From Parcubacteria group bacterium GW2011_GWB1_42_6 (GTDB lineage Bacteria > Patescibacteriota > Minisyncoccia > Portnoybacterales > GWB1-42-6), in contig LCEC01000001.1 of NCBI GenBank assembly GCA_000997475.1, positions 375-64,374 on the forward strand: a DNA stretch of 64,000 nucleotides. The letters are read 5' to 3'. The notes under the pieces are model-generated. The model saw nothing but the letters and a program-made list of their open reading frames with translations, made no database searches and was not told the DNA's origin. Of this stretch, positions 3,118 to 62,605 are shown piece after piece; position 1 is the stretch's first letter; each line of letters opens with the position of its first letter. Position numbers and translations under genes: made by a program.

Positions 3118-4572
3118 ATGAAAATTTTTTTAATCGGTTTTTCCAATGATATTTTCCGGGGCGTTGCCGAACAATTGGCCAAAGAACCGGATTTTGAAAT
3201 CGCTTATTGGACTTGCCGTTTTCCCGAAAAAGTTGACAGAACCAAGTTTCCCGAAGCGGTTATCCATTTTTCGGAAGACGCCATCAAGGGGATTCCGGCC
3301 CGCGATTTTAATGTTTTTGATTTTGAGCCTCTTGGCGAAGAATTGGCGGGCCAAATGTACGAATGCGAATCCCATGCCCTTACCATGATGAATCGAATGC
3401 ATTTTTCTTCTTCTTTGGGTGTTGATCAGCGAAAAAGAATATATTACGGCTATTTAAAATATTGGAACGGCATTTTGAAAAAATTTCAACCCGAAGCGAT
3501 TGTTTTTTCAACGATTCCCCATATGGGCTATGATTATGTTTTATACTGCTTGGCCAAAAATTTCGGCGTTAAAACTTTAATGTTTGATTTGACCAGAATT
3601 CCCGACAGGATTGTTCTGATGGATGATTTTAAAAAAGGGTTTCTTCCGTTAAAAAAATATTTGGCGGAAATGAAAAAAGACGTGAATTTGGCCGATCTGG
3701 ATGAAAAATTGCGAAATTATTATTCTCTTATGTCGGATAAAGAAAAAATTTATTATCCTCTTAATATCCCGACAGGATGGGAAAAGGCTTTAAAGAATAA
3801 AAGACGCGTAGTTCCTTCCGTTAAAATTAGATCTATTTTACGGGCCATAAAAAATAAAAATCTCGAAGAAAAATTGTTTGTCTTTCTTAATATTCTAAAA
3901 AGAAGAATATCGGTAAAAAAAATGGAAGAAGAATATTCGCGGCTGCAATTAAAACCCGATTTGAATAAAAAATTCATCTATTTTCCATTGCACGTCCAAC
4001 CTGAATGCACCACGTCTCCCTTGGGCGGAATTTTCGCCGATCAATTGCTCGTCGTTGAAATGTTGGCAAAAGCGCTGCCCGAGGATTGGCTGATTTATGT
4101 TAAGGAGCACAAATTTCAGCTGGTTAGAACGGCCGGGGGATACGCCAGATTCCCAAATTATTACAAATTTTTGACAAACCTCAAGAATGTCAATCTGGCG
4201 CCTATGAATTTTTCGAGCAATGAATTGATTTTAAAATCGCAGGCGGTAGCCACCATCACCGGCAGCGCCGGCTGGGAAGCTCTTTTTAGAGAGAAACCGG
4301 TTTTGGCGTTTGGTTATCCGGTTTATCAATTTTGCGACGGCGTTTTCCGCGTTTCAAACTTTAAAGAATGCCAAGAAGCGATTTTGGCCATTGTTAAAGG
4401 ATTCGCGCCTGACAAGCAAAAGGTGCTGAATTTTTTATCCGCTCTTAACGGAAGCGCGATAAAAGCCAATTTGAACTGCGGAGATTCCAAGGAAATTCGT
4501 CTTTCCGAAGACGCGAACATAAAAAATATTTCCGAAGCGATTCATAATCATTTATTTAAAAATCATGTTTAA
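3118..4572 (+). CDS. Capsule-polysaccharide biosynthesis family protein (KpsS/KpsC-like), putative nonulosonic-acid/Kdo-type transferase
   Basis: C-terminal motif TITGSAGWEALFREKPVLAFGYPVYQ resembles the Capsule_synth TVNSxxGxEAL..GKPV..G..Y signature; 484 aa, between NeuC-like and NeuB-like genes. Confidence 0.4.
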   Translation: MKIFLIGFSNDIFRGVAEQLAKEPDFEIAYWTCRFPEKVDRTKFPEAVIHFSEDAIKGIPARDFNVFDFEPLGEELAGQMYECESHALTMMNRMHFSSSLGVDQRKRIYYGYLKYWNGILKKFQPEAIVFSTIPHMGYDYVLYCLAKNFGVKTLMFDLTRIPDRIVLMDDFKKGFLPLKKYLAEMKKDVNLADLDEKLRNYYSLMSDKEKIYYPLNIPTGWEKALKNKRRVVPSVKIRSILRAIKNKNLEEKLFVFLNILKRRISVKKMEEEYSRLQLKPDLNKKFIYFPLHVQPECTTSPLGGIFADQLLVVEMLAKALPEDWLIYVKEHKFQLVRTAGGYARFPNYYKFLTNLKNVNLAPMNFSSNELILKSQAVATITGSAGWEALFREKPVLAFGYPVYQFCDGVFRVSNFKECQEAILAIVKGFAPDKQKVLNFLSALNGSAIKANLNCGDSKEIRLSEDANIKNISEAIHNHLFKNHV

Positions 4573-21907: not shown

Positions 21908-22039
21908 TTTTCAAATTGCAAATTCTCCTCCTTCGCTCCTTCGGAGCTTCGGAAGGACATGGCAATTTCCAATTAAGGATGAAACTATTTATATAACTCC
22001 CCCAACCCCCTCTTATCTAAGAGGGGGAATCCGCCAAGA

Positions 22040-25818: not shown

Positions 25819-26763
25819 ATGAATTTTCTCGACATCAATCAATCTTACAAAAACGCGAAATTCGTTGTCGCGCCTTTTGGCTTTGAAGCCACCACGAGTT
25901 ATGGCGGAGGAACGAATAAAGGCCCGGCGGCAATAATCAAAGCCAGCGCCCAGGTTGAGCTTTTCGACGAAGAACTCTGGCGGGAAATCTACAAAAAGAC
26001 AGGCATTTTCACTTTGCCCGCAATAAAACCCGCCAAAAATATTCCCGGCGCCAAGAAACAGATTTCAAAAATAATCTCAAAAATTCTTGCGGATAAAAAA
26101 ATCCCGATTGTTTTGGGCGGCGAACATAGCATCACGCCTATGATAGTTGAAACATTTTCGGATTTCCTCCTCCCCTCGTCGAGGGGAGGCCATGGAGGGG
26201 TAATTAATCCTAAAATTACCTCCCCCGAACCCCTCCCTAAAAAGGAGGGAAGGAATTCCGCCGCTTCTTTCTCCATCCTCCAATTTGACGCCCACGCCGA
26301 TTTGCGCGATGGCTACTTGGGGCAAAAATATTCCCACGCGGCCGCCATGCGCCGATGTTTGGATAATGAGGGTGTTAATTTAGTCCAAGTCGGGATCAGG
26401 AACATCAGCAACGAAAATGATGAGTTGGTTTTTTGGGAAGCAAACAAAGATCGCATTAAAACTTTCTGGGCCAAAGATAAAAAAAATTGGAAGCTTTCCG
26501 AAATTATGGGTTCTCTTAGGGAAAATGTTTATTTAACCTTTGATGTTGACGCTTTTGATTCTTCGATTATGCCTTCAACCGGCACGCCCGAACCCGGAGG
26601 ATTGGATTGGTACGAAGTGATGGATATTTTGCGCGAAGTCGCCAAAACCAAAAACATCATCGGCATGGATTTTGTGGAGCTCGCTCCCATTAAAACCCTT
26701 CCCGCGCCGGATTTTTTGGTCGCCAAGATGATTTATAAGACGATAGGGTATATTTTAAAATAA
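25819..26763 (+). CDS. Agmatinase/arginase-family ureohydrolase
   Basis: Metal-binding motifs GGEHSIT, FDAHADL, SFDVDAFD; carries an in-frame palindromic insertion at 26166-26252. Confidence 0.75.
   Translation: MNFLDINQSYKNAKFVVAPFGFEATTSYGGGTNKGPAAIIKASAQVELFDEELWREIYKKTGIFTLPAIKPAKNIPGAKKQISKIISKILADKKIPIVLGGEHSITPMIVETFSDFLLPSSRGGHGGVINPKITSPEPLPKKEGRNSAASFSILQFDAHADLRDGYLGQKYSHAAAMRRCLDNEGVNLVQVGIRNISNENDELVFWEANKDRIKTFWAKDKKNWKLSEIMGSLRENVYLTFDVDAFDSSIMPSTGTPEPGGLDWYEVMDILREVAKTKNIIGMDFVELAPIKTLPAPDFLVAKMIYKTIGYILK
26166..26252. repeat. In-frame composite of three GC-rich hairpins inside the agmatinase gene
   Basis: cctcccctc-gtc-gaggggagg, ggaggggtaatt..aattacctcccc, ccctccc-taaaaa-ggaggg; the region encodes SSRGGHGGVINPKITSPEPLPKKEGRN. 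Confidence 0.6.
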
Positions 26764-30683: not shown

Positions 30684-33368
30684 ATGTCCATATTCACCAA
30701 AATTTTCGGCGGGACGAATGAAAAGTCTGTTGCCAAATATAAAACGGTCATTGAAGAGATTAATAAGCTTGAACCGAAATTCGAGTCTTTTTCGGATGAG
30801 GAATTGAAATTGAAGACCGCCCAATTTAAAGAAAGATTGGGCAAAGGAGAAACTCTGGATGATATTTTGCCCGAAGCCTTCGCGGCTTGCCGCGAGGCGG
30901 CCAAGCGCGCGATCGGCCAACGGCATTTTGACGTTCAGTTGATCGGCGGAATGGTTTTGCACGAAGGAAAAATCGCCGAAATGAAAACCGGCGAAGGAAA
31001 AACTTTGGCGGCGACTTTGGCGGTATATCTCAACGCGCTTTCAGGCAAAGGCGCGCACGTTGTAACGGTGAACGATTATCTTTCCAAACGCGACGCCAAC
31101 TGGATGGGATCAATTTATCATTTTTTGGGTTTGAGCACCGGCTGCATCCAGCACGAAAAATCTTATGTTTACGAACCCAAAAAAATCGATCTCAACGAGG
31201 TAACGGTGGAAATGGAAAATCTCAAACAGGTTTCGCGGCGTGAGGCCTATGCCGCCGATATCACTTACGGCACGAACAACGAATTCGGCTTTGATTATTT
31301 GCGCGACAATATGGTGCCGGATTTCAGCGAGATGGCGCAAAGACCTGTCCTCCGAAGCCTTGGCGAAGGGGGAAAACACAACTTCGCCATTGTGGACGAA
31401 GTTGATAGCATTTTGATCGACGAAGCGCGCACGCCTTTGATTATTTCCGCTCCCGACGAAGATTCGGGCAAACTCTACGAAACTTTCGCGCGGATTGTTC
31501 CCCGCCTCAAAGAAAACGAGGATTTTAACATTGATGAAAAATTGCGCTCGGCCACTCTCACGGAAGAAGGCATTGAAAAAGTGGAAAAAATTTTGGGTTT
31601 GGGGAATATTTACACCGAAGGCGGAATAAAATACGTTCATCACTTGGAGCAAGCTTTGCGGGCGCAGGCGCTTTTTAAAAAAGATCGCCATTATGTCGTC
31701 AAAAACGGCGAGATCATTATCGTTGATGAATTTACCGGCCGCCTTATGCCCGGCAGAAGATATTCGGAAGGCCTTCATCAGGCTTTGGAAGCCAAAGAAA
31801 ACGTTACGGTGCAAAAAGAATCGCGGACTTTGGCCTCAATCACTTTTCAAAACTATTTCAGAATGTATGAAAAACTTTCGGGCATGACCGGAACCGCCAT
31901 GAGTTCGGCCGAGGAATTCGGCAAAGTCTATAATCTTGAAGTGGTGGAAGTTCCCACCCATAAGCCTCTTTCCAGGGGTGATAAATCCGATTTGATTTTT
32001 CGCACCGAGATGGGAAAATTCAAAGCGGTGATCCGTGAAGTGGAAGAACGGTACAAAAAAAATCAACCGGTTTTGATCGGCACGGCCTCGATTGATAAAA
32101 ACGAACTTTTGGACCAACTTTTAACCAAAGCCGGAATCAAGCATGAAGTTTTAAACGCCAAAAATCACGAACGCGAAGCTTTGATTATCGCCAAAGCCGG
32201 GGAGCCGGGCGCGGTGACGGTGGCGACAAATATGGCGGGGCGCGGAGTGGATATAATTTTGGGGGGAAGAATTGAATCTCACAACTCTCCCCAACCCCTT
32301 CTTAACTTAAGAGGGGGAGAGGGGGAGTTATCAAAGGATAGCTCTCAAGAAAAAAGTGAATGGCAAAAAAAACACGACTTGGTTGTTTCTTTGGGGGGAC
32401 TGGCGATCATCGGCACCGAGCGCCATGAAGCGCGCCGGATTGACGACCAGTTGCGCGGGCGCGCCGGCCGCCAGGGCGATCCGGGTTCTTCGCGGTTTTT
32501 CGTTTCGCTTGAGGACGATTTGATGAGGATTTTCGCGGCCGATCGCATCAAGGGAATGATGGAATTTTTAAAGATGCCCGAAGACGAGCCGATTGAAAAC
32601 AAAATGATCTCCAAGGCGATCGAATCGGCGCAGGAAAAAATCGAAGGATTCAATTTTGACACTCGCAAACATGTTTTGGAATATGACGATGTGATGAACA
32701 AACAGCGCGAAACGATTTATCGCAAGCGCCGGGAAATTTTGGAATCAAAAGATCTTAAAGAAAAAACTTTGGAAGCGATTTTGGGGGAAGTCAAAAAAAT
32801 CGCCCAATTCCATGCCGCGGGATACAAAGAAGAATGGAACACGAAAGAGCTCAAAGAATCATTGGGCGCGATTATGCCTCTTCCGGCTGATTTTGACGAA
32901 GCGGTTGGGAAAATTGAAACTTCCGAAAATCTGGTTGGCTTTTTGGAAAAACTCGCCGCCGATATTTACGAGATGAAAGAAAAACAAATCGGTTTTGAGC
33001 AGATGCGAGAAATCGAAAAAGTTCTCTTTTTGCGCACCACCGATATGATGTGGATGGATCATCTGGACGAGATGGAGCATTTGCGCGATTCCGTTCGCTT
33101 GCGCGCCTATGGCCAAAAAGATCCCTTGGTTGAATACAAAAACGAAGGCCACAAACTTTTTCAGGATTTGCTGGCTGCCATTCAGGCGCAATTTACGAGC
33201 ATGATTTACAAAGTGACTCTAACGCCGCCGGAGAATCGCCAATCGCGCGTCGCCAATCGCCCTTCGACAAACTCACCACAGGCAAGCTCGGGAAATAATT
33301 CGGTCGGCAGAAACGATCCGTGCCCGTGCGGGAGCGGGAAAAAGTATAAGAAGTGTTGTGGAAAATAA
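30684..33368 (+). CDS. secA: Preprotein translocase ATPase SecA
   Basis: MSIFTKIFGG.. start, DEAD-like motor motifs, and C-terminal zinc-binding CPCGSGKKYKKCCG; the ORF-track N-terminal extension from 30516 is not credible. Confidence 0.9.
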   Translation: MSIFTKIFGGTNEKSVAKYKTVIEEINKLEPKFESFSDEELKLKTAQFKERLGKGETLDDILPEAFAACREAAKRAIGQRHFDVQLIGGMVLHEGKIAEMKTGEGKTLAATLAVYLNALSGKGAHVVTVNDYLSKRDANWMGSIYHFLGLSTGCIQHEKSYVYEPKKIDLNEVTVEMENLKQVSRREAYAADITYGTNNEFGFDYLRDNMVPDFSEMAQRPVLRSLGEGGKHNFAIVDEVDSILIDEARTPLIISAPDEDSGKLYETFARIVPRLKENEDFNIDEKLRSATLTEEGIEKVEKILGLGNIYTEGGIKYVHHLEQALRAQALFKKDRHYVVKNGEIIIVDEFTGRLMPGRRYSEGLHQALEAKENVTVQKESRTLASITFQNYFRMYEKLSGMTGTAMSSAEEFGKVYNLEVVEVPTHKPLSRGDKSDLIFRTEMGKFKAVIREVEERYKKNQPVLIGTASIDKNELLDQLLTKAGIKHEVLNAKNHEREALIIAKAGEPGAVTVATNMAGRGVDIILGGRIESHNSPQPLLNLRGGEGELSKDSSQEKSEWQKKHDLVVSLGGLAIIGTERHEARRIDDQLRGRAGRQGDPGSSRFFVSLEDDLMRIFAADRIKGMMEFLKMPEDEPIENKMISKAIESAQEKIEGFNFDTRKHVLEYDDVMNKQRETIYRKRREILESKDLKEKTLEAILGEVKKIAQFHAAGYKEEWNTKELKESLGAIMPLPADFDEAVGKIETSENLVGFLEKLAADIYEMKEKQIGFEQMREIEKVLFLRTTDMMWMDHLDEMEHLRDSVRLRAYGQKDPLVEYKNEGHKLFQDLLAAIQAQFTSMIYKVTLTPPENRQSRVANRPSTNSPQASSGNNSVGRNDPCPCGSGKKYKKCCGK
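32284..32328. repeat. In-frame GC-rich palindromic insertion within secA
   Basis: ctccccaacccc ttcttaacttaaga gggggagaggggg encodes SPQPLLNLRGGEGE. Confidence 0.6.
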
Positions 33369-43728: not shown

Positions 43729-43868
43729 TAATCGGCATAATTGAATTCTCTTTCTTCTCTGTCATCCCCGCGCAGGCGGGGATCCAGATTAATTCAGAAC
43801 CTGGATTCCCCCCGTAGCTGCGGGGCGGGAATGACAAATATAAAGCCAATGCCGATTAGGTGCGGGGG
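43729..43868. mobile_element. MITE-like element A with 19-bp perfect terminal inverted repeats
   Basis: TIR CCCCCGCACCTAATCGGCA / TGCCGATTAGGTGCGGGGG; internal multi-hairpin core. Confidence 0.6.
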
Positions 43869-46270: not shown

Positions 46271-46767
46271 ATCTTTTATGATTTTAAAAACGACGCAATC
46301 CATCACACTCAAGAGTAAAACAGGTTGTGCTCTGATTATTTATTATTGCGGAACAAAATAAAAAGAGCGCTTCGTTTGAAAGCGCCCTCATTTTGATGCA
46401 GGCGAGAAAAAATTTTATCTAAGAATTCTCGAGTTCTCTCAGATATTTTTTCCTCGTCGGGAATTATCGTGTTAGACGACCGCCTTGTTTTCGCATTAGC
46501 GAATGTTTCGAGTTCTTAAGCTCGATCTTTTTAGGCGTTGATAACACTAACTCCCTTTATAACTTTTGGAAAATTTGGATTACCCGTCCTTCCCTTTTGG
46601 ACTTGGGAAGAGTTGGGGTGATGCTCGACTCATACTGCCTCCGTGGAATGGAGTTTTCTTGAGTGAGCGGAAGGTACTGACCGATCGAAAGCCGATAAAA
46701 ACAGCCTTCGATCATATATAGAGATTATAAAATAACGATGAGCTTGTCAAGTCTTTTCAATTTTACA

Positions 46768-46883
46768 CACACCTAGTCAGGATATTTGAATTTAATTTGG
46801 ATAATAAACAAGTTTACTCCCAATGGCTTGTTTGTCTTCGAAGGATTCTTTGAATAAAAAACAATCCTGATTAGGCGCGGGGG
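46768..46883. mobile_element. MITE-like element B, copy 1
   Basis: (c)cacctagtcagga ... tcctgattaggcgcggggg imperfect TIRs; interior is the reverse complement of copy 2. Confidence 0.55.
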
Positions 46884-46937: not shown

Positions 46938-48809
46938 ATGACGGCCAAGGAATTACGCGGTAAATATCTTGAATTTTTCAAAGCTCGGGGGCACGCGGTT
47001 ATCCCTTCGGCTTCTTTGGTTCCGCAAAACGATCCCACAGTGCTTTTTACCACCGCCGGAATGCAACCTTTAGTGCCGTATCTTTTGGGCGAAAAGCATC
47101 CCCAAGGAAAGCGGCTTGTCAATGTTCAAAAATGCCTCCGCACCAACGATATTGATGAAGTGGGTGATGCCACTCACGGAACTTTTTTTGAAATGCTTGG
47201 CAATTGGTCTTTGGGCGATTATTTTAAAAAAGAATCGTTGAGTTGGAGCTATGAATTTTTAACTTCGCCTGAATGGTTGGGATTGGATAAAAACCGTTTG
47301 GCTGTTTCGGTTTTTGCAGGGGATGACGACGCGCCATTTGATGAAGAAGCTTTTGAAATTTGGAGATCTTTGGGTATTTCTGAAAAAAGAATCACCCGGC
47401 TTCCCAAAGAAAACAATTGGTGGGGGCCGGCCGGAGAAACCGGGCCATGCGGACCGGATTCGGAAATATTTTATTGGACCGGCGCTCCGGATCAGGTTCC
47501 GGAAAGTTTCAACGATGATAACGATCTTTGGGTGGAAATCTGGAATAACGTTTTTATGCAATATAATAAAAACATAAAAGGCTCCTTTGAACCGCTTGCG
47601 CAAAAAAATGTTGACACGGGTTTGGGGCTGGAAAGGGCGCTGGTTACTCTCAATGGCTACGACGAGATTTATAAGATTGACGTTATCCGGCCGATTATTG
47701 AAAAGATAGAAGAAATTTCAGGGAAGAAATACGATGAAACTATCTCTGAAATCCCCCTTAATCCCCCTTTTACAAAGGGGGGAAATCAGAAGGCTATGAG
47801 AATCGTGGCGGATCATTTGAAAGCGAGCGCTTTTTTAATCGCCGATGGAGTTGAGCCTTCCAATACGGAGCGAGGCTATGTTTTGCGCCGGCTGATTCGG
47901 CGCGCGGTGAGATATGGCCGGCAATTGGGAATTGAAGGAATTTTTTGTTTTAAAATCGCGCGGGTCGCGATTGAAATATACAAAGATATTTATCCGGAAC
48001 TTTCGCGGGAAGAAAATTCAATCGAAGAGCAATTAACGAAAGAAGAAGAAAAATTTGCCAAGACTCTTGAATCCGGATTGAAACAATTTGAAAATGTAAA
48101 AATCAAAATTAAAAATGACAGCGCAAAATCTGGAATTATTTCCGGGGAGATCGCTTTTAATTTGTATCAGACTTACGGTTTTCCCGTCGAGCTGACAAAA
48201 GAATTGGCCAAAGAAGCCGGATTGGAAGTTGACGAGGAAAAATTTAAGGATGAAATGAAGCGCCATCAAGAACTTTCCCGCGCCGGAGCCGAACAAAAAT
48301 TCAAAGGCGGTTTAGCCGATCATTCGGAACAAACCGTCAAATACCACACGGCGGCGCATTTGCTTTTGGCGGCTTTGCGTCAAACTTTGGGCGGAGACGT
48401 AAATCAGCGTGGCGCCAATATAACAAGCGAACGATTGAGATTTGATTTTTCGCATCCGCAAAAAATGACTCCGGAACAAATTAAAGAAGTTGAGGATTTG
48501 GTGAATGAAAAAATCAAAGAAGACTTGCCGGTTGCTTGCGAAGAGATGGCCTTGGATGAAGCGAAAGCAAAGGGAGCGACTGGAATTTTCGATTCAAAAT
48601 ACGGGGAGAGGGTGAAAGTTTATACAATTGGAAGCCCTTCGACAGGTCCTTCGACAGGCTCAGGGCAATGCTCGGGGTCCGCGGCTTTCAGCCGCGAGAT
48701 TTGCGGCGGGCCGCATGTTGAAAGAACGGGAGTTTTGGGAAATTTTAAGATCGTTAAAGAAGAATCGTGTTCGGCCGGAGTGAGAAGAATCAAAGCGGTG
48801 CTGAAATAA
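46938..48809 (+). CDS. alaS: Alanine--tRNA ligase, short form (catalytic, tRNA-recognition and editing domains; no C-Ala domain)
   Basis: N-terminal class II core, editing-domain HTAAHLL motif; 623 aa; contains two in-frame insertions. Confidence 0.85.
   Translation: MTAKELRGKYLEFFKARGHAVIPSASLVPQNDPTVLFTTAGMQPLVPYLLGEKHPQGKRLVNVQKCLRTNDIDEVGDATHGTFFEMLGNWSLGDYFKKESLSWSYEFLTSPEWLGLDKNRLAVSVFAGDDDAPFDEEAFEIWRSLGISEKRITRLPKENNWWGPAGETGPCGPDSEIFYWTGAPDQVPESFNDDNDLWVEIWNNVFMQYNKNIKGSFEPLAQKNVDTGLGLERALVTLNGYDEIYKIDVIRPIIEKIEEISGKKYDETISEIPLNPPFTKGGNQKAMRIVADHLKASAFLIADGVEPSNTERGYVLRRLIRRAVRYGRQLGIEGIFCFKIARVAIEIYKDIYPELSREENSIEEQLTKEEEKFAKTLESGLKQFENVKIKIKNDSAKSGIISGEIAFNLYQTYGFPVELTKELAKEAGLEVDEEKFKDEMKRHQELSRAGAEQKFKGGLADHSEQTVKYHTAAHLLLAALRQTLGGDVNQRGANITSERLRFDFSHPQKMTPEQIKEVEDLVNEKIKEDLPVACEEMALDEAKAKGATGIFDSKYGERVKVYTIGSPSTGPSTGSGQCSGSAAFSREICGGPHVERTGVLGNFKIVKEESCSAGVRRIKAVLK
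47752..47786. repeat. In-frame GC-rich palindromic insertion within alaS
   Basis: tccccctta atccccctttt acaaa ggggggaaat encodes PLNPPFTKGGN. Confidence 0.6.
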
Positions 48810-48856: not shown

Positions 48857-48935
48857 GTCATTCCCGCGCAGGCGGGAATCTAGATTAATTCAGAATTAGA
48901 CTTGGGTCTGGATCCCCGTTTTCACGGGGATGACA
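48857..48935. repeat. TIR-less copy of the MITE-A core (GTCAT..ATGAC multi-hairpin unit)
   Basis: gtcattcccgcgcaggcgggaatctagattaattcagaa.. is about 80% identical to 43761-43837. Confidence 0.55.
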
Positions 48936-49530: not shown

Positions 49531-49647
49531 CCCGCACCTAGTCAGGATTGTTTTTTATTCAAAGAATCCTTCAAAGACAAACAAGCCATTGGGAGTAAAC
49601 TTGTTTATTATCCAAATTAAATTCAAATATCCTGACTAGGCGCGGGG
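49531..49647. mobile_element. MITE-like element B, copy 2 (inverted relative to copy 1)
   Basis: cccgcacctagtcagga ... tcctgactaggcgcgggg. Confidence 0.55.
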
Positions 49648-49659
49648 ATAAAATAAACT

Positions 49660-61501: not shown

Positions 61502-62605
61502 ATGACTATTGGCATTAACGCCTCGGCGGCTGTCAAAAAGAATAGAACCGGAGTGGAAGAATACGCTTATCAGCTCATAAAGCATTTGGCGATGATTCCC
61601 GAGTCCCAAAAGCATCGTTTTTTTCTATATTTGCCATCCGCAGTTTTAGCAAAGGAAGGTTTGCCCGACAATGTTTTTGATTTTTCTTTCCCTGAAAATT
61701 TTATAATAAAAAAACTTTGGTGGCCGCTGCCTTTCTTCTGGACGCAAATAAGATTGTCTCTGGAAATGATTTTTTTTGCGCCGGACGTTCTTTTCATCCC
61801 CGTTCATATTTTGCCTTTCATTCATCCAAAAAAATCCATTGTTTGTGTTCACGGCCTTGAATATGAATATCTGCGCGGATTCTATTCTTTTTCCCATCGT
61901 TTGTTTTTGCGTTGGAGCACCAAATTTTCCGCCGCGAAATCTTTCCGGATAATCGCGGTTTCTCAAAATACCAAGAACGATTTGGCAAAAATATATAAGA
62001 CAGATACTGATAAAATAAAAGTGGTAAAACACGGGATTTCCTTTCCCCCTTTAGAAAGGGGGATTAAGGGGGATTTTTTAAGGAAGAAAGAAAAATATAT
62101 TTTATATCTAGGCCGCATCGAAACCAAGAAGAATATCCAAGGAATTATTGAAGCGTATGAAATTCTGAATAACAAATATAGCATTCACCACAAGCTTGTT
62201 TTAGCCGGTTCAAAAGGATACGGCCATAAGAATTTAAAAATACCGAGCGATGTGATTCAGACCGGATTCGTGAGCCAAGAAAAAAAAGAAGTCTTGATGA
62301 ACAACGCCGCAATATTTCTATTTCCCTGTTTTTACGAGGGTTTTGGTTTGCCGATTCTTGAAGCTCAAGCGGCGGGAATTCCCGTCGTGACTTCTTATAA
62401 TTCTTCAATGCCGGAAGTGGCCGGGGAAGGGGCTTTATTTGTTGATCCGCGCAATCCGGCTCAAATCGCCCGGGCCGTTAAAAAAATAATTGACGACAAT
62501 CTCTTGCGTGATAAACTGATACAATCGGGATTTGAGAACATAAAAAAATTTTCTTGGGAAAAATGCGCTCGGGAAACGCTGGATTTTTTAAGCAGCTTGG
62601 AATAG
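61502..62605 (+). CDS. Glycosyltransferase family 4 (GT-B)
   Basis: C-terminal EGFGLPILEAQAAGIPVVT sugar-donor-binding motif. Confidence 0.75.
   Translation: MTIGINASAAVKKNRTGVEEYAYQLIKHLAMIPESQKHRFFLYLPSAVLAKEGLPDNVFDFSFPENFIIKKLWWPLPFFWTQIRLSLEMIFFAPDVLFIPVHILPFIHPKKSIVCVHGLEYEYLRGFYSFSHRLFLRWSTKFSAAKSFRIIAVSQNTKNDLAKIYKTDTDKIKVVKHGISFPPLERGIKGDFLRKKEKYILYLGRIETKKNIQGIIEAYEILNNKYSIHHKLVLAGSKGYGHKNLKIPSDVIQTGFVSQEKKEVLMNNAAIFLFPCFYEGFGLPILEAQAAGIPVVTSYNSSMPEVAGEGALFVDPRNPAQIARAVKKIIDDNLLRDKLIQSGFENIKKFSWEKCARETLDFLSSLE
62041..62075. repeat. In-frame GC-rich palindromic insertion within the GT4 gene
   Basis: ctttccccctttagaaagggggattaagggggat encodes SFPPLERGIKGD. Confidence 0.55.

Follow-up and report, generated by a model that had tools for sequence, protein, structure and literature searches.

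The DNA analysed in this work, which will be referred to as the window, is a stretch of 64,000 nucleotides (nt) from Parcubacteria group bacterium GW2011_GWB1_42_6 (contig LCEC01000001.1), and its subject is a short palindromic element that is present within alaS, the gene for alanyl-tRNA synthetase (AlaRS). This gene is located on the plus strand at positions 46938–48809, where an open reading frame (ORF) with matches to the Pfam families tRNA-synt_2c (1.6e-148) and tRNA_SAD encodes a product of 623 amino acids (aa), a short AlaRS of the kind that is typical of bacteria of the candidate phyla radiation (CPR). The protein is 100% identical to the AlaRS from Parcubacteria group bacterium GW2011_GWA1_42_7, also of the CPR. 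Within alaS, an insertion of 36 nt (47751–47786, plus strand; codons 272–283) is free of stop codons in the reading frame of the gene and encodes a Pro/Gly-rich stretch of 12 residues, viz. IPLNPPFTKGGN. An earlier note on this DNA had reported an in-frame palindromic insertion at 47752–47786, and the bases that it gave, tcccccttaatcccccttttacaaaggggggaaat, match the sequence exactly.

The insertion is extra DNA relative to other alaS genes. When the 120 best homologues were aligned using MAFFT, its 12 residues were missing in all 119 of the other AlaRS (119/119), so that conservation of the segment in other AlaRS, which the note had named as the refuting outcome, was seen in none of them (0/119). 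The alignment with the AlaRS from Aquifex aeolicus (1RIQ) leaves a gap of exactly 12 residues, with "SGKKYGEKFE" on one side and "TDVALRVIADHLRA" on the other. The expectation that it occupies a tolerated loop also agrees with the predicted structure and the alignment, which place it in a coil at the junction of the aminoacylation and the helical tRNA-recognition parts of the enzyme. In an AlphaFold2 model of the protein (built on 74 sequences; mean pLDDT 84.9), residues 270–280 have pLDDT values <50 and form a coil between helices 251–261 and 282–302. As the insertion is retained in all eight close variants of the gene (8/8; ≥95% identity), which are derived from independent assemblies, it is fixed and is not an artefact, and no presence/absence polymorphism was observed among these eight variants. 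A second, low-complexity insertion, GSPSTGPSTGSGQCSGS, is found in the same gene at 48630–48680 (residues ~565–581), where the DNA contains a tandem repeat of CCTTCGACAGG; its residues 571–580 have pLDDT values <50, and it varies between strains, the sequence P0123 being 7 residues shorter.

The element that accounts for this insertion, as delimited by the covariance model of its family (R1, see below), extends from 47748 to 47783 on the plus strand and consists of a (G)AAAT tag, a C box, a TTAAT spacer, a hairpin and a final A. Positions 47749–47783 read AAAT CCCCC TTAAT CCCCCTTT TAC AAAGGGGGG A, and all features of the family are present. The outer C5 box (47753–47757, plus strand), which is seen in the sequence and in the lowest-energy fold, is a direct repeat of ATCCCCCTT that lies 10 nt 5′ of the inner box. 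The hairpin (47763–47781, plus strand), which is seen in the sequence and in a hairpin scan, is formed by CCCCCTTT (47763–47770), the loop TAC (47771–47773) and AAAGGGGG (47774–47781); with eight perfect pairs and a loop of 3 nt, it is indeed the perfect stem-loop that had been described. A 20-mer from the alaS element had 1 match in the window vs 0.02 expected from shuffled sequences. In the predicted RNA fold of lowest energy for its 48 nt mRNA context (−18.3 kcal/mol, z=−2.5), the partner of the G box is not the inner but the outer C box, with five flanking pairs (UCUGA/UCAGA) in addition, and because this fold joins the G box to the outer box, the two C boxes represent alternative hairpin partners. 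No match at gathering score was found in Rfam 15 for the whole window or for ten element-rich loci, and around the alaS element (E values up to 10) there were only chance-level hits (best E=0.083; 9.7–20 bits vs gathering thresholds of at least 40). Three other identities of the alaS element were considered and rejected, namely an intrinsic terminator (the element has no T-run and lies inside an ORF), a CRISPR repeat, and a DNA uptake sequence, as it is an insertion and not a substitution pattern.

The alaS element is probably a translated solo copy of a short dispersed repeat, which we will refer to as the three-box repeat. Its layout is AAAT, a C5 box, a spacer of 2–5 nt, a C5TTT-loop-AAAG5 hairpin and then A. 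A scan of the window for C/G-run hairpins gave 11 strand hits vs 0.27 in shuffles, a three-box detector gave five copies vs 0.01 in shuffles, and a search for repeats turned up four relatives in direct and one copy in inverted orientation. The model R1 was built only from 45 repeats that flank genes for the nuclease domain DUF559 (see below). Its top match in the window is the alaS element (47748–47783; 45.9 bits, E=1.5e-11; model positions 1–36 of 36), and beyond the copies in alaS, a family 4 glycosyltransferase (GT4) gene, an intergenic region, secA and an arginase-family gene it found nothing in the window below E=0.9. The insertions in alaS, secA, the agmatinase-like gene and the GT4 gene, which the earlier note had assigned to one family, are thus all found by a single model.

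The GT4 copy (62042–62077, minus strand; 62045–62076 by repeat finding; 45.7 bits, E=1.7e-11) lies in frame in the gene at 61502–62605, where it encodes PPLERGIKGDF; it is in reverse orientation, 88% complementary to the alaS copy, and occupies aa 182–192, in the linker between two Pfam domains, the first of which ends at residue 179 and the second starts at 193. An untranslated intergenic copy located 5′ of murB (21993–22028, plus strand; 21997–22028 by repeat finding; 32.5 bits, E=1.2e-7) reads CTCCCCC-AA-CCCCCTCTTA-TC-TAAGAGGGGG. The secA element (32281–32330, no strand assigned; 32287–32325 by repeat finding) is a four-box double palindrome (fold −29.5 kcal/mol, z=−4.2) that encodes SPQPLLNLRGGEGE in frame; R1 matches it on the minus strand with 20.7 bits (E=3.1e-4) and on the plus strand with 15.8 bits (E=0.0081), and the aligned SecA from Escherichia coli has an 8-residue gap at this position. 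A further possible GC-rich insertion in secA (31344–31373; CCTGTCCTCCGAAGCCTTGGCGAAGGGGGA) encodes PVLRSLGEGG directly before the conserved FAIVDEVDS motif. Lastly, the arginase-family (agmatinase-like) gene contains, in frame, a composite of three hairpins with a length of ~102 nt (26160–26262, plus strand; fold −49.7 kcal/mol, z=−3.8), which includes a diverged three-box copy (26216–26251, plus strand; 26220–26251 by repeat finding; 15.6 bits, E=0.0095) with the peptide TSPEPLPKKEGR. Residues 111–152 of this protein correspond to only 8 residues in the agmatinase 3PZL, which is consistent with the presence of the composite. Hence, four of the five window copies are present in coding sequence, and in all four of these, as in every homologue insertion that was examined, the length is divisible by three and no stop codon is present.

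The three-box repeat is not limited to the CPR but occurs in many bacterial phyla. A genome collection containing one genome per species was scanned with the pattern CCCCCN{2,5}CCCCCTYTN{2,8}ARAGGGGG, and the matches listed include Desulfobacterota, Nitrospirota, Beta- and Gammaproteobacteria, Bacteroidota, Chloroflexota, Cyanobacteria, Omnitrophota and Chlamydiae as well as CPR groups. In the 164 copies among these listed matches, the four bases that precede the first C box, which are not imposed by the pattern, are AAAT in 69% and CTCA in 12%, the latter being a variant of the Bacteroidota type, and the position following the G run, likewise not imposed, is A in 76%; conservation extends from −4 to +1 and not beyond. 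Exact recurrences of the alaS subtype, AAATCCCCCTTAATCCCCCTTT, are found among them in Schekmanbacteria, Thermodesulfovibrionia and Thermodesulfobacteriota. About one-third of the listed copies lie in long stop-free frames, and the hosts in other phyla that were confirmed by Pfam include leucyl-tRNA synthetase (LeuRS), a radical SAM protein, CbiG-CobJ (with two copies), RecJ, FtsJ, an M19 dipeptidase, an ABC-F protein and a GT4 protein in which the element occupies the same inter-domain linker as in the window GT4; in these hosts the elements are positioned between domains or in loops. Doublets were also observed among the listed matches from other genomes, 11 of them of the minus/plus and eight of the plus/minus type, the commonest being the gene-less minus/plus doublet with a gap of 16–50 nt. 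Two tandem arrangements were seen in addition to these dispersed copies. A Bacteroidales metagenome-assembled genome (MAG) carries three copies with near-identical flanks at an exact spacing of 78 nt (L011, 59–246), i.e., a tandem array, and the inter-domain linker of an ABC-F protein from an Avigastranaerophilus MAG (L022) contains tandem, partly degenerate peptide repeats derived from the element, viz. TTPFIKGAHNT x2 followed by TPFVKGGQGG.

The loop of AlaRS that carries the insertion in the window has received inserts in other lineages as well. Other AlaRS have independent inserts in the same loop, at positions a few residues upstream (SPQPPLNLKGGEILNPPNPPLH, VSQNPPQPSFK and PSQPSLNLRGG), and at the DNA level these are C-box/hairpin elements of the same kind (Parcubacteria loci L001, L002, and L004). 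An independent element insert, PPSPLERGGGG, is found in this loop in the AlaRS of a Chitinophagaceae MAG belonging to the Bacteroidota (L026, ~3310–3341). Inserts of unrelated types are present there in P0029, P0024/P0033, P0035/P0045, and P0014, examples of which are CHSREGHAYRQAG, KGNLGNEEMPKCW, TFVPSSGRGALTMDEKI, and AFSFLPKADEAFDFLPKAED. This loop is thus a general hotspot for inserts.

Two observations on aminoacyl-tRNA synthetases led us to pursue a link between the repeat and the domain DUF559. In one CPR AlaRS (P0057), the protein is fused via "INPPTPFNKGGIKN" to an upstream DUF559 ORF, and in the LeuRS from a Cytophagales MAG (L015, 5682–8000) the catalytic core and the editing domain are separated by a whole DUF559 domain (residues 350–454), which is in frame and is flanked by two hairpin elements (TPGPSPEERGG ... 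SPSPVERGLGGE). In a first set, consisting of loci fetched by the element pattern, the loci L001–L004 and the window, seven loci had a DUF559-like domain, and in six of the seven elements were found 5–50 nt away, usually on both sides; all six of the DUF559 seed sequences match PF04480. In the reverse test, 80 metagenomic DUF559 loci were chosen by protein similarity alone, and a three-box element was present within 150 nt in 42 of them (in 18 on both sides). The elements at these 80 loci had a preferred orientation, upstream copies being in minus orientation by 30:8 and downstream copies in plus orientation by 23:4, and their density was 2.86 per kb near DUF559 vs 0.15 per kb elsewhere in these loci, with shuffles giving values of about zero.

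The units defined by these repeats have a uniform layout. The left end is CCCCCTTT-loop-AAAGGGGG-N3-GGGGGATTT, the ORF starts about 3–30 nt after this repeat, and the right end is AAATCCCCC-N3-CCCCCTTT-loop-AAAGGGGG; the whole unit has a length of 385–504 bp, and its sole gene encodes a DUF559 (Vsr-like PD-(D/E)XK) endonuclease. When units from unrelated contigs were compared, the limits of their DNA similarity were within 0–5 nt of the outer hairpin ends (e.g., 448 nt for the pair L101/L143, with offsets of 0, 0, 1, and −1; likewise for L164/L194 and L134/L194), and because the similarity ends at these points the DUF559 unit behaves as a discrete module. The three-box family thus forms the terminal inverted repeats of compact DUF559 modules. 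One such case comes from a Parcubacteria contig with the same alaS-infA-rpsM order (L205), where a full DUF559 unit lies directly upstream of the alaS gene. The left repeat of this unit, AAATCCCCCTTAATCCCCCTTT, matches the window alaS copy in 22 identical nt, and a neighboring copy of the secA/intergenic subtype is also present. The DUF559 profile matches the PDB entries 3HRL (1e-31) and 3R3P, an intron homing endonuclease (1e-4), in agreement with the grouping of Vsr, DUF559, and DUF2726 (PMC3424549). In a table of predicted programmed-inversion targets DUF559 is enriched (odds ratio 14.3; PMC9881135), an outcome to be expected from flanking inverted repeats; in the literature searched, this table came closest to a description of the link.

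Some other repeats in the window differ from the three-box family. An inverted pair of 121 nt sequences (46761–46881 and 49531–49651; 93% complementary) brackets alaS and the downstream NUDIX gene; each copy has a terminal inverted repeat of its own (CCTAGTCAGGAT...ATCCTGAYTAGG) and is MITE-like (MITE, miniature inverted-repeat transposable element), and no further copies were found in the window. A GC-rich hairpin repeat of a different type, TGTCATCCCCGCGCAGGCGGGGATCCAGA with an inverted relative, is present at 43760–43788 and 48907–48935, and the latter copy and the start of the NUDIX ORF overlap, which yields 'LDPRFHGDD'.

The three-box element resembles two known kinds of palindromic repeat but belongs to neither of them. 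The Rickettsia palindromic elements (RPEs) are in-frame, translated and fold-compatible inserts in unrelated housekeeping genes (Ogata et al., 2000, 2002, as summarised in PMC10969869), with a length of ~100–150 bp. The alaS element, as a palindromic repeat that lies in frame in a protein-coding gene, shares this trait. However, RPEs are limited to Rickettsia, whereas the alaS element is only 35–36 nt long, has a Parcubacteria host and is unrelated to them in sequence; further, RPEs have no known associated enzyme, whereas the three-box family, which is found in many phyla, additionally supplies the ends of DUF559 modules. With repetitive extragenic palindromic (REP) elements and the REPINs, the three-box repeat has in common that it is an imperfect palindrome of 20–40 nt which is present in multiple copies and in inverted doublets, and the flanking of a single small nuclease gene by inverted copies is reminiscent of the REP-associated tyrosine transposases (RAYTs). 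The latter are Y1 (HUH) transposases and are the presumed mobilisers of REP sequences, which are extragenic. In contrast, three-box copies are often present in coding sequence (as noted for four of the five in the window), they contain an extra direct-repeat box, and the gene that recurs between them is a PF04480 PD-(D/E)XK nuclease and not a Y1 transposase; the clustering of ORFs revealed no further gene that recurs beside them, although no hidden Markov model search aimed at Y1 transposases was made. The tag also differs, being AAAT or CTCA instead of the GTAG or CGTC of REPs (PMC3733652).

Two further comparisons are of interest. MITEs are short non-autonomous elements whose ends are those of the gene-carrying parent from which they derive, and the minus/plus doublets look like gene-deleted forms of this kind, but for the three-box repeat there is neither a DDE transposase parent nor a consistent target-site duplication, and a solo copy, which is a single end of ~35 nt, is below the usual size of a MITE. 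The structure 3R3P is that of I-Bth0305I, a Vsr-like homing endonuclease, and the selfish, gene-invading behavior of intron-borne Vsr-like endonucleases is known. The module protein belongs to the same nuclease clade as these enzymes and 3HRL, but whereas they reside in group I introns or inteins and have one cognate site, the DUF559 module gene is free-standing between hairpin repeats and is found in many unrelated contexts. The known kind to which the element belongs is selfish palindromic DNA inside genes, whereas the element itself and its association with DUF559 appear to be new; neither was found described in the literature searched, although most subscription journals lay outside this search and an earlier description is possible.

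Based upon these results, we tentatively propose, while giving it rather less than an even chance, that the repeats and DUF559 together constitute mobile elements of an undescribed, ultra-compact class (~0.4 kb), distributed over many phyla, with DUF559 as the mobiliser, and that their solo or doublet ends have been repeatedly fixed in frame in essential genes. The DUF559 nuclease would act in trans on the hairpin ends, as RAYT transposases do on REP sequences, and the ends of DUF559 modules would be either the form in which the three-box family spreads or the source from which it does so. An insertion into an essential gene would survive selection only if it is in frame, free of stop codons and located in a permissive loop. 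The alaS copy is probably translated and near-neutral, a piece of selfish DNA that likely has no role in the function of AlaRS. For the narrower statement that DUF559 mobilises the three-box repeats, which draws on the association and layout described above, the chances seem to us nearly balanced, although slightly unfavorable. Several observations weigh against this proposal. No DUF559 gene is present in the 64 kb window or in four related CPR loci, and among the DUF559 genes sampled (80 loci), no more than about half have flanking elements. Target-site duplications are not consistently seen at the flanks of solo copies or of whole units; the alaS copy is flanked by a 5 nt direct repeat, GAAAT, but other copies show no consistent duplication, so that GAAAT...GAAAT is not a general feature. 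The nearest AlaRS without the insertion is only 67% identical and hence does not provide a recent empty site. Additionally, DUF559 is not known to cleave or to transpose three-box hairpins. Viral contigs contained only three relatives of DUF559, one of them with nearby elements, and gave no sign of a phage vehicle.

The main rival to mobilisation by DUF559 is the homing of DUF559 into pre-existing doublets. According to this explanation, the repeats and DUF559 are two independent parasites. A host process or another transposase would be responsible for the spread of the repeats, while DUF559 would cleave inside inverted doublets of them and insert copies of itself there, without mobilising the alaS copy. 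The relationship of DUF559 to the Vsr-like intron homing endonuclease 3R3P accords with such behavior, and the 11 gene-less minus/plus doublets listed, with their gaps of 16–50 nt, would serve as empty homing sites. The occurrence of about half of the DUF559 genes without elements is likewise in its favor, as is the great excess of solo copies over gene-carrying units in the loci selected for elements. However, no other enzyme family recurs beside the repeats: when the 2788 ORFs of 120 element-bearing loci were clustered all-against-all, the only recurrent neighbors were generic families and DUF559. Further, the limits of the units coincide with the outer hairpin ends and not with those of the gene alone, and for this reason the gene and the repeats are seen to travel together. 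We consider separate parasites to be less likely than not, though by no means remote.

In contrast to the above, the remaining explanations concern the alaS copy itself. The hairpin could have been selected in alaS as a signal in the mRNA or DNA, acting, for example, as an RNase site, as the binding site of a regulator, as a stabiliser or to make translation pause between two domains, and its predicted mRNA stem-loop of about −18 kcal/mol with alternative pairings, its position at a domain boundary and its fixation in the population would all suit such a role. However, it is conserved in none of the other 119 AlaRS, unrelated genes and intergenic DNA contain near-identical copies in both orientations, the z-score of the fold vs shuffles is only −2.5, and no Rfam family is matched; a functional signal is therefore improbable. 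It is more improbable still that the palindrome arose in place, without any mobile source, through slippage during replication or a template switch at the C-run. Template switching can yield a pattern such as this one, in which ATCCCCCTT is directly repeated at a distance of 10 nt and an inverted copy then follows, but the identity over 22 nt, including the AAAT tag, with repeats in other genes, genomes and phyla has already largely refuted a local origin, and a model derived from unrelated metagenomic copies recognizes the alaS copy with E=1.5e-11. Least credible of all is that the insert is absent from the mature AlaRS, through ribosome bypass (some mitochondrial systems bypass GC-rich hairpin inserts) or removal, or that it is an assembly artefact, since bypass would not need the genic window copies and the examined homologue inserts to be multiples of three and stop-free, as all of them are, and an artefact is rejected by the identical insertion in at least seven independently assembled sequences from several sources.

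For alaS the significance of these results is modest, in that a selfish repeat has given an essential enzyme a harmless-looking loop of 12 residues, and the phenomenon known from the RPEs is now seen in a CPR bacterium. In a wider sense, one element of ~35 nt is found across phyla, where it is present repeatedly in frame in housekeeping genes and brackets DUF559 in discrete modules. If these constitute a class of mobile elements, this would explain the recurrent PPFxKGG and KSPLxPLxxRG peptides that the elements encode in proteins of many phyla among the sampled loci. If DUF559 acts on the hairpins, a large domain of unknown function would gain a testable role, a new partnership of nuclease and repeat would stand beside that of REP and RAYT, and annotators would have both a simple explanation and a model for a common class of unusual insertions, and of small spurious ORFs, in proteins from metagenomes.

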